A stretch of DNA of 64,000 nucleotides from Escherichia coli (lineage in GTDB: Bacteria > Pseudomonadota > Gammaproteobacteria > Enterobacterales > Enterobacteriaceae). Where the stretch lies: the NCBI RefSeq assembly GCF_016026235.1, contig NZ_CP065613.1; one strand, written 5' to 3'. A program made the position numbers and the translations under genes. Below are positions 3,805-5,640 of this stretch, piece by piece (positions within the stretch are counted from its first letter, which is position 1; the number at the start of each line of letters is the position of its first letter). The notes under the pieces were generated by a model that saw nothing but the letters and a program-made list of their open reading frames with translations, had not been told where the DNA came from and ran no database searches.

Positions 3805-4126
3805 TGATATGACTTTCCGTGTCAAACCGGAATCTCTAATTTTGACGATTTTCTTTTTAGGTTTAATTCCCTGAGGGCGACGTAGCAGTAAATCCGACGG
3901 TGAATCACGCTGATATTCGCGGGTTGGATACCGCATTACAGAGGTCCGTCATATGAGCCTGCCACTGATATGACTTTCCGTGTCAAACCGGAATCTCTAA
4001 TTTTGACGATTTTCTTTTTAGGTTTAATTCCCTGAGGGCGACGTAGCAGTAAATCCGACGGTGAATCACGCTGATATTCGCGGGTTGGATACCGCATTAC
4101 AGAGGTCCGTCATATGAGCCTGCCAC
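3805..4126. repeat. Perfect tandem duplication, 2 x 161 bp (3805-3965 and 3966-4126)
   Basis: The two units are identical base for base on direct reading; each unit begins with tgatatgactttccgtg. Confidence 0.95.
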
Positions 4127-4231
4127 TTTCTTACGTCGCGAATCAGCTTTGTTCCGCCGTCGCCAAGCGCTAACGTGGGTTACTCTTGTACCGGGCTACG
4201 TCGCCTTCAGGGAACTGGTTATTCTCATTTT

Positions 4232-5406
4232 TTATTTGTGACATTGTGGTTGTTGTGCGACAGACATTGCTATTCGGCCCATATCCCAGATAAAACCCGC
4301 CAGCTCACGTGCAACAGCAACAATTGTAATATTGACATTCTTTCCTTTGGCCTGAAGTTTTCGATACCTCTTACAAAGCCTGAGTTGAGCATCCCATGCT
4401 CTGTCAATGACGGGGCGGGGTAAATTTTCCTGCCTTTTTTGTATTGCCGGACTGATGCGTGCCGGATGACGGTAACTCCACGCTGCCTCGACCAATAGCT
4501 TTCTGGCATAGCTGTTTCCGGCTTTGGTAATGCTGCCCTGATGTCTGCTTCCACCCGATGAATATTCTGATGGCGTGATACCAAACCATGACATCAGTTG
4601 TCGTGGATGTTCAAAACGGGTCAGATCACCCAGTTCAGAAATTAATCCAACCGCAGTAATAAACTGAATCCCTCGCATGGCTTGCAGCGCCTCTACTACC
4701 GGATACAGCCTCCATTCGGTAACGGCCTCCTTCAGGGCGGATTCCAGCCGTTCACATTGTGCCTGCCGGTCTTCTATTGTACGACGGTGTTCGTCAAAAG
4801 CTAATTGTCGCCAGGGACTTTCGAATGAGTATTTGCTGAGCCAGCGTCGGTGTGCAGGGCCCCAATCTGCTCGCCCGACATAATGGACCCCATGAACCAG
4901 AAGAAACGATTTCAGACGTTGCCTTGCATGCCGTAAATCATCGCGGGCAGATGCCCATGCCCGGGCCAAATCCCGGAATGCCTCATCTTCAATGCTGGGT
5001 ACGTAGACAGCAGAAAGATCTCCTGCACGCAGTGAACGCACAAGTCTGATGGCATCACGGCGATCGGTTTTAACCCGCTCCCCCGGTTTTTCGGGATAAG
5101 TGAGGGGGCGCAGACCATGCAGTCAAAACCGGATTTCACCAGCCGACGATAAAGTCCATAACCACAGGGCCCCGCTTCATAAACGATACTGACCTGCGAT
5201 GACTTTGACCTGAGACGTTTACAAAGATTCTGAATATCAGTAGGTGATGTGCCAATTTTACCCATCAGTTCAACAGGTTCTGAATTGATAGCATAAGCGA
5301 CAGTAATCGATTCTTTGTGAACATCTAACCCGACGTACAATGTGTTATTGTTGTTCATGCTGGCCTCCGTGGTGGAAATACCGGGGTGTAGCAACAGCTC
5401 ACCCAT
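4232..5406 (-). pseudogene. IS110-family DEDD transposase split by a frameshift
   Basis: ORF 4912-5406 has the N-terminal YVGLDVHKESI RuvC-like motif; ORF 4232-5041 has the C-terminal Tnp domain (RSLRAGDLSAVYVP, GITPSEYSSG). They overlap in different frames; the alternate frame reads KTDRRDAIRLVRSLRAGDL across the junction. Confidence 0.8.
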
Positions 5407-5640
5407 GCGGCTCTGACAACGATGTTAACCCGCGTTAAATATCCCACGTTGGCCAGCATCTGTCTCACGGAAAGTCATACTGCCTTACAGCCGTCAAAAA
5501 CGCATCTCACCGCTGATGGCGCAAATCCTTCTATAGATCGTAAAAAACGAATTTTTCCTACACTATAATCTGATTTTAACGATGATTCGTGCGGGGTAAA
5601 ATAGTAAAAACGATCTATTCACCTGAAAGAGAAATAAAAA

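Follow-up and report, generated by a model that had tools for sequence, protein, structure and literature searches.

A probable decayed copy of ISSso6, an IS1111-type element, with an end-anchored duplication and hybrid flanks upstream of nhaA in Escherichia coli

The IS110 family of insertion sequences (IS) has been shown experimentally to be RNA-guided (PMC11187229). In seekRNAs of the IS1111 group the match to the top strand of the target stands 5′ of the match to the bottom strand, the RNA comes from the non-coding region downstream of the transposase gene, and the elements have subterminal repeats (PMC11187229). A circle-junction promoter made from the joined ends has been described for ISEc11 (PMC11187229), and circles of partial elements are documented for ISPpu9 (PMC12288879). 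Here we describe an element located upstream of nhaA in a 64,000-nt stretch of Escherichia coli DNA (RefSeq assembly GCF_016026235.1, contig NZ_CP065613.1), hereafter the window. It is very probably an ISSso6 copy in decay (ISSso6 is of the IS1111 type within the IS110 superfamily), and this reading, including the predicted guide RNA, the hybrid flanks and the proposed history, is the best explanation of the locus as a whole. ISSso6 and the mechanism of its family are already known, and the identification itself is routine annotation. A first-pass annotation made from the sequence had placed upstream of nhaA an IS110/IS1111-type element whose repeats are subterminal, which holds, and had proposed a left-side neighbourhood, which does not. 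It did not contain three of the features described below, namely a 161-bp duplication, a frameshift in the transposase gene and a foreign left flank.

3806-5485, minus strand: ISSso6 copy; transposase on the minus strand, right end (RE) at 3806, left end (LE) at 5483/5485.

In a megablast search of 5426 complete E. coli genomes the matches carry the label "IS110-like element ISSso6 family transposase", and copies 99-100% identical are found in enteroinvasive E. coli chromosomes and pINV plasmids. Copies just as close are also present on plasmids of Shigella sonnei, S. dysenteriae, S. boydii and S. flexneri. The duplication and a 1-nt deletion aside, the window copy is 99.9% identical over 1520 bp to annotated ISSso6 (the E. 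coli FDAARGOS_943 copy, L001, and plasmid copies). Native ISSso6 is 1520 bp long with one CT counted, and the window copy is 1680 bp (1520 + 161 − 1). The intact transposase has 375 amino acids (WP_001063816.1, in L001). It matches PF01548 (E = 2.4e-11) and PF02371 (E = 8e-24), as well as the NCBIfam model NF033542, "IS110 family RNA-guided transposase", with 273.9 bits against a cut-off of 140, and the family assignment of the first-pass annotation is thereby borne out. Two features are those of an IS1111-type element. The intact homologue combines a DEDD/RuvC-like N-terminal domain with the PF02371 C-terminal domain (the gene in the window is frameshifted), and the longer non-coding region lies 3′ of the transposase gene, 265 nt as compared to 126 nt upstream. 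A classical IS110-type element, with the bridge RNA upstream and no inverted repeats, was considered and rejected, since ISSso6 has 14-bp repeats and its non-coding region follows the gene.

The boundaries were set from two uninterrupted target sites (a slash marks the edge of the element). In E. coli 042 the site reads ...TCTCGGAGCG-CT-TACGATTAATC, in short GGAGCG-CT-TACGATT, and the window has ...GGAGCG-CT/GATATGAC. In K-12 it reads ...TCGTGAGCG-CT-TACAGCCGTC, in short GTGAGCG-CT-TACAGCCG, and the window has ...ACTGC-CT/TACAGCCGTC. From these empty sites it follows that the element is 3806-5485, with CT on each side and no target duplication. Alignment of the K-12 nhaA region, the check suggested in the first-pass annotation, places the insertion point at the CT at K-12 17332-17333.

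3804-3805, no strand: CT core dinucleotide at the left junction (GGAGCG-CT/GATATG...), from the empty 042 site.
5484-5485, no strand: CT core dinucleotide at the right junction (...ACTGC-CT/TACAGCC), from the empty K-12 site.
3808-3821, plus strand: subterminal inverted repeat at RE, outer (duplicated) copy, exact match.
3969-3982, plus strand: subterminal inverted repeat at RE, inner copy in its native element context, exact match.
5466-5479, minus strand: subterminal inverted repeat at LE, exact match; relatives keep TATGACTnnnCGTG.

The 14-mer TATGACTTTCCGTG is found exactly at 3808-3821 and 3969-3982 on the plus strand and at 5466-5479 on the minus strand; the first-pass annotation had the first two right and the third one base off, at 5467-5480. 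When up to two mismatches are allowed there are 4 matches in the 64-kb window against 0.36 expected, a number reached in 0 of 100 shuffles. The window holds no further exact copy, thus the 14-mer is not the generic repeat that the same annotation had reckoned with. The two direct 14-mers are not independent copies, as both lie within a perfect 161-bp tandem duplication. Outside the repeats there are short tips, GA before the repeat at RE (2 nt) and CTGC after the repeat at LE (4 nt), and CT comes next, in agreement with the IS1111-like subterminal placement claimed earlier. The same repeat-tip-core layout is found in about 35 of the 80 relatives fetched (48-81% amino-acid identity, mostly Burkholderiaceae), which read flank-AG/NCAG-TATGACTnnnCGTG ... 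transposase gene ... non-coding region ... CACGnnnAGTCATA-TC/AG-flank. The flank differs for every relative element.

The target in the window reads GAGCG-CT-TAC and lies 155 bp before the nhaA start. The pattern (A/G)CG-CT-TAC is common to 8 independent sites: the nhaA site, the 042-type site, four metagenome contigs, the chromosome of a cattle isolate and a plasmid. Insertion is therefore site- and orientation-specific without target-site duplication, as in other IS1111-type elements. As an exact pattern, the RE sequence had 0 matches in species-representative genomes; the 8 loci that it matched in metagenomes served as sources of target sites. CT (AG on the IS strand) flanks most relatives; on the RE side AA or GG is found in some. 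In two loci (L003, L010) CC replaces CT beside RE (GTTGACG-CC/GATATG) while the LE side still has CT, explained either by tolerance of a core mismatch or by mutation after insertion. Metagenome contigs L008 and L009 have the same insertion site, and in L009 a small deletion where IS and target meet has removed 6 bp of the target, AACGCT, directly beside RE. A variant copy (L013) sits at an atypical site, and its few RNA changes do not account for that site.

3967-4231, minus strand: native 265-nt non-coding region, candidate seekRNA/bridge-RNA gene (fold, conservation, compensatory change).
4195-4214, minus strand: 5′ arm of the long outer stem, partner 4028-4047 (fold and consensus structure).
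4028-4047, minus strand: 3′ arm of the outer stem, with a second copy at 3867-3886 in the duplicated unit (fold and consensus structure).
4166-4174, minus strand: T guide, RNA 5′-GUUAGCG-CU-3′ (first hypervariable block, co-varies with the flank).
4130-4136, minus strand: B guide, RNA 5′-ACGUA-AG-3′ (second hypervariable block, co-varies with the flank).
4071-4077, minus strand: invariant AUAUCAG, candidate donor-end guide; identical to the RE tip plus core and invariant in 31 sequences, the assignment being tentative.

The 265-nt non-coding region has a fold energy of −88 kcal/mol (z = −4.6 against shuffles). When aligned with those of 30 relatives (31 sequences, alignment A3) it is strongly conserved apart from exactly two hypervariable blocks. 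RNAalifold places these blocks facing each other across one internal loop, closed by a hairpin-bearing helix, and a 21-bp outer stem encloses the RNA (window 4195-4214 paired with 4028-4047). In the consensus structure 97.7% of cells pair, as compared to 31-43% in slid controls. Compensatory change is seen at 18 pairs against 5.0 ± 1.5 in shuffles, and 0 of 500 shuffles reach 18.

The hypervariable blocks follow the flanks of each element. The T guide is complementary to the target top strand, covering the core and the RE-side flank (AG-CGCTAAC), and the B guide equals the sequence of the LE-side flank plus core, hence pairs with the bottom strand. Among 22 relatives compared in a fixed register, the T guide matches its own flank at 4.41 of 7 positions and those of others at 1.99 of 7; for the B guide the values are 3.00 of 5 and 1.51 of 5. 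In both comparisons 0 of 20000 permutations did as well, and a free-register test agrees (0 of 10000 permutations). The core complement co-varies too, with UU accompanying AA flanks and CC accompanying GG flanks. Specifically, several relatives (L017, L025, L027, L035, L043 and others) have AG as the LE-side dinucleotide and AA or GG on the RE side; their T guide fits the RE-side dinucleotide and their B guide keeps AG, so each guide seems to specify the core on its own. These data make the 265-nt region the predicted gene of a seekRNA/bridge-RNA-type guide. In the predicted RNA the top-strand target match would stand 5′ of the bottom-strand match, again as in IS1111-type elements. The T and B guides together would specify GTTAGCG-CT-TACGT in window orientation, which, with the exact termini of ISSso6 now set, is its ideal target around a CT core. 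Mapping of the guide RNA by co-variation across about 30 elements also provides natural examples of retargeting.

3806-3966, minus strand: outer copy of the 161-bp duplication, comprising RE and the 3′ part of the non-coding region, without target guides (self-comparison, Tandem Repeats Finder).
3967-4127, minus strand: inner copy; internal breakpoint at CT 4126-4127 (GAGCCTGCCA-CT-TTCTTACG; self-comparison, Tandem Repeats Finder).
4304-4305, no strand: internal CT site AACCCGCCAG-CT-CACGTGC, unused in the window; breakpoint of the VL40 339-bp duplication (VL40 comparison).

The transposase-distal end of the window copy is duplicated in tandem with 100% identity over 161 bp, at 3804-3964 and 3965-4125 or, counted from the end of the element, in the two intervals listed above. 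Tandem Repeats Finder gives 3804-4127, 2.0 copies and 100% matches. The inner copy leaves the native element whole. The duplicated unit begins precisely where the IS ends, and its junction, GCCA-CT-GATATG, has 2 nt of shared sequence, which are the CT core. The internal breakpoint lies 3 nt past the B-guide DNA; on the IS strand the site reads AAGAA-AG/TGGCAGGCTCATATGAC, loosely like the flank/LE junction (ACGTA-AG/GCAGTATGAC). The contiguous duplication junction occurs in 0 of the 5426 E. coli genomes and 72,556 plasmids. When occurrences of the unit were counted against those of the internal segment next to it, no convincing solo 161-bp module emerged (15 versus 13 places in one genome). The other extra matches of the unit were rejected as solo modules, as they represent an 85-bp remnant family.

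Two other ISSso6 copies, both from E. coli, carry similar events. In the pINV plasmid of VL40 (L095, 1502-2182) a perfect 339-bp tandem duplication starts at the RE terminus and its unit spans the whole non-coding region and the last ~70 nt of the transposase gene. In the RMDEC465 chromosome (L002, 4525-4944) a perfect 208-bp tandem duplication covers the nhaA upstream region and the first 53 nt of nhaA. Its unit runs from precisely the LE boundary to GGCATTATT-CT-TATCATT, with CTTA shared at the junction; as a result a truncated nhaA 5′ fragment stands ahead of the intact promoter and gene. Thus three events of different lengths are all anchored at a terminus and all have a CT junction, which we take as an argument that the transposase initiates them. 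We give even odds that a single side reaction of an IS1111-type RNA-guided transposase left all of the 161-, 339- and 208-bp duplications, the junction at a resident end recombining with a CT pseudo-site close by. Possible routes are recombination with a pseudo-site on the sister chromatid, a mini-circle that integrates again, and microhomology repair initiated by a nick, all of which would look alike in sequence. A side reaction of this kind is not described in PMC11187229 or PMC12288879, and the recurrence of end-anchored duplications is a modest, possibly new observation. If it is true, such elements remodel and duplicate adjacent DNA, host promoters included, beyond inserting. If the duplications are made by the transposase, they are also relevant to the off-target behaviour of bridge/seekRNA recombinases under development for genome editing.

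The 161-bp duplication could also be an ordinary microhomology-mediated tandem duplication, produced by slippage or template switching at CT with the transposase uninvolved. The merely 2 nt shared at the junction and the poor fit of the internal site to the guide-specified target would suit such an origin. We nevertheless consider it rather doubtful, since the boundary coincides with the exact IS terminus, two more perfect duplications are terminus-anchored with CT, and a random duplication in the ~1.9-kb span surveyed would meet the terminus exactly well under 1% of the time. A second explanation takes the duplication and the frameshift for assembly or sequencing artefacts, the real locus being a plain intact ISSso6. 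It draws on the frameshift being a 1-nt change in a T6 run and on the duplication being unique to the window among the collections searched. It is improbable, however, given that the duplication is perfect and in register with terminus and core, that analogues exist in two independent assemblies, and that the usual assembly error is collapse of repeats, not their expansion. A transposase side reaction is the origin that we carry forward in what follows.

5641-6807, plus strand: nhaA, GTG start at 5641, 155 bp from the insertion point.
1-3805, no strand: left flank from another chromosomal locus (ribokinase, fucP-like, aldose-1-epimerase, IS66 TnpA remnant), from the 042 match.

The element ends 155 bp before the GTG of nhaA, close to the 160 bp or so given in the first-pass annotation. 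The same annotation suggested that a different element takes here the place of IS186 and hokC of K-12, which is incorrect: in K-12 the target (17332-17333) falls in the interval from sokC to nhaA, at some distance on the right of IS186 and hokC, and strains with an insertion at the same site keep mokC and an IS4-like element. The same nhaA-upstream ISSso6 insertion is present in 5 E. coli genomes (FDAARGOS_943, CFSAN029787, RMDEC364, VL46 and RMDEC465), and in FDAARGOS_943 mokC and the IS4-like element are retained left of ISSso6. In the window, 2950-3805 matches at 100% a locus of E. coli 042 (~5.097 Mb) that contains genes for ribokinase, a fucP-like permease, an aldose-1-epimerase family protein and a small "transposase" open reading frame. 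The 042-type locus runs unbroken past the target in 945 genomes. Each flank is thus the correct half of a different target, most simply explained by two insertions that later underwent homologous recombination with each other. On this evidence the left flank is not dnaJ-hokC, and the window copy would be a recombinant of two insertions that marks a chromosomal rearrangement junction beside nhaA. The reciprocal junction (mokC side - ISSso6 - TACGATTAATCGG) and the mokC-side flank are not within the 64-kb window.

The hybrid flanks might instead have come from a single transposase-catalysed recombination of the two target sites, in the manner of a bridge recombinase. Enzymes of the superfamily can catalyse inversions and excisions between sites, as reported from work on IS621, and the half-targets are correct on both flanks. 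The sequence does not discriminate between the two routes; yet homologous recombination of 1.5-kb identical repeats is far commoner in the IS-rich genomes of Shigella and enteroinvasive E. coli, so we find the single-step route unlikely and retain two insertions joined by homologous recombination. The insertion separates nhaA from all sequence more than 155 bp upstream. The nhaA promoters P1 and P2 reportedly lie ~32 bp and ~142 bp upstream of the start codon. Presumably, P1 and the NhaR sites would then stay intact, and the insertion would adjoin the stationary-phase promoter P2. Within the left flank, the open reading frame 3417-3671 is an IS66-family TnpA remnant of 84 amino acids (NCBIfam, score under the cut-off), and 3208-3434 has an AfaR-like Rfam match below threshold (33 bits, gathering score 100). 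Both are fixed in the 945 E. coli genomes and are therefore older than the ISSso6 event.

4232-5359, minus strand: transposase gene, a pseudogene here (ATG at 5359 to stop at 4232); open reading frames 4912-5406 and 4232-5041.
5087-5091, no strand: T5 run, T6 in intact copies; the 1-nt deletion causes the frameshift (comparison with intact copies).

Besides the 1-nt deletion, the gene differs from intact copies by one further substitution, at 4996. The "61-nt leader" of the first-pass annotation was counted from an upstream ATG at 5406 of the frameshifted reading frame; the start annotated in intact copies is the ATG at 5359, which is 106 nt from the LE repeat and 126 nt from the end of the element. 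The C-terminal G(L)-P----S/T-G motif is present (GITPSEYSSG in translation), and its residues G260, P263, S268 and G269 are invariant in alignment A2. The only solved structures related by sequence are those of the IS621 and ISCro4 transposases, which match in the C-terminal domain only (E = 2e-5). The protein is very distant from that of the IS110-type ISEc21 and barely alignable with it. A classical protein-only IS, whose transposase would itself read the 14-bp repeats and the target and whose non-coding region would be a spacer or terminator, is hardly credible, even though the inverted repeats hold position across relatives and the RNA of ISSso6 is a prediction, because the region is conserved beyond spacer level, compensatory changes back its structure, its sole two hypervariable blocks follow the flanks of each relative, and the family is experimentally RNA-guided (PMC11187229).

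Taken together, we propose the following history for an RNA-guided ISSso6. Identity, boundaries and target of the element, its hybrid flanks, the structure of the RNA and the co-variation of guides and targets are shown by the sequence comparisons, whereas expression of the RNA, the circle promoter, the order of events and how the duplication arose are inferred. ISSso6 encodes a DEDD transposase, with a predicted structured RNA of seekRNA/bridge-RNA type downstream of the gene and the 14-bp subterminal repeats as presumed protein-recognised end signals, and it inserts at a CT core in one orientation without target duplication. The history would start with two insertions, one 155 bp ahead of nhaA and one within the fucP/aldose-epimerase locus, at GGAGCG-CT-TACGATT. 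Both loci would then have been fused when these copies underwent homologous recombination with each other. An aberrant transposase-dependent event may have joined the RE junction to an internal CT weakly like the LE tip, duplicating the last 161 bp, most likely between sister chromatids or via a 161-bp mini-circle. Later, the 1-nt deletion would have disabled the transposase gene.

Several points weigh against this reading. A permissive scan of 3000-6000 with Rfam 15 matched no family in 3806-5485, and no RNA or transposition data for ISSso6 were found in the literature searched. The transposase, with 375 amino acids, is longer than the 330-350 given for IS1111-family enzymes (PMC11187229). 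No donor-end guide is assigned confidently: AUAUCAG is a candidate, and a possible LE donor partner, UACUGCU, is one base out of register. The frameshift falls within a homopolymer run, where a sequencing error is possible. As for the duplication, a single assembly supports it, with no second case among the genomes and plasmids searched; the fit of the internal CT sites to the target guides is weak (about 4-5 of 7 positions), with the likeness to the LE tip out of exact register, and 2-4 nt of shared junction sequence are also expected from microhomology-mediated slippage.

3981-3986, minus strand (also 3820-3825): TTGACA, putative −35; TTGAC is invariant in relatives.
5477-5482, minus strand: CAGTAT, putative −10; kept in relatives, the role being tentative.

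Joining RE to LE in silico brings together TTGACA-17 nt-CAGTAT, whose two hexamers relatives also keep, in line with the circle-junction promoter of ISEc11 (PMC11187229). A promoter would arise from them only when RE and LE are joined in the excised circle.

Some observations concern ISSso6 and its relatives at large. An ISSso6-related remnant is found in three metagenome contigs (L006, L007 and L012) and in about 60 E. coli genomes. It contains RE positions 1-85, then jumps to 282, so that almost the whole guide-RNA region is gone; it is ~94% identical and truncated after 620. Several pINV copies of ISSso6 are interrupted by IS600/IS3-family or IS1 elements, forming nested insertion sequences. 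Outside Enterobacteriaceae, the closest relatives with the same ends and RNA scaffold (73-81% amino-acid identity) are abundant in Paraburkholderia, Caballeronia, Cupriavidus and Mycetohabitans, and closer relatives occur in Salmonella (95%) and Serratia fonticola (90%). This distribution suggests that the ISSso6 clade is centred in Betaproteobacteria.

Among known systems, the nearest are the ISSso6 copies of S. sonnei, S. dysenteriae, S. boydii, S. flexneri pINV and enteroinvasive E. coli, which are 99.4-100% identical and have the same ends. The window copy differs from them by its own 161-bp RE duplication, by the frameshift in its transposase gene and by a left flank that belongs to a different locus. 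ISEc11, ISKpn4, ISPa11 and ISPst6, for which seekRNA has been shown experimentally (PMC11187229), are like ISSso6 in having subterminal repeats, a long downstream non-coding region, no target duplication, the top-strand guide 5′ and −35 and −10 hexamers, putative in ISSso6, split between the ends. They have other targets and transposases of 330-350 as compared to 375 amino acids, and the RNA of ISSso6 is predicted; the comparison is one of architecture. IS621 and ISCro4 of the IS110 group (PDB 8wt6 and 9t56) share with ISSso6 a DEDD + Tnp_20 recombinase, the CT core and two guides that face each other across an internal loop, each covering the core; unlike ISSso6, they have the RNA upstream of the gene and no inverted repeats. 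In ISPpu9 of Pseudomonas putida, also an IS110-family element, the transposase circularises sub-modules, including the downstream small-RNA part alone (PMC12288879). These module circles provide a precedent for the use of an internal end-like site. The modules of ISPpu9 are dispersed as separate copies, whereas the ISSso6 products stay joined to their parent element as tandem duplications.

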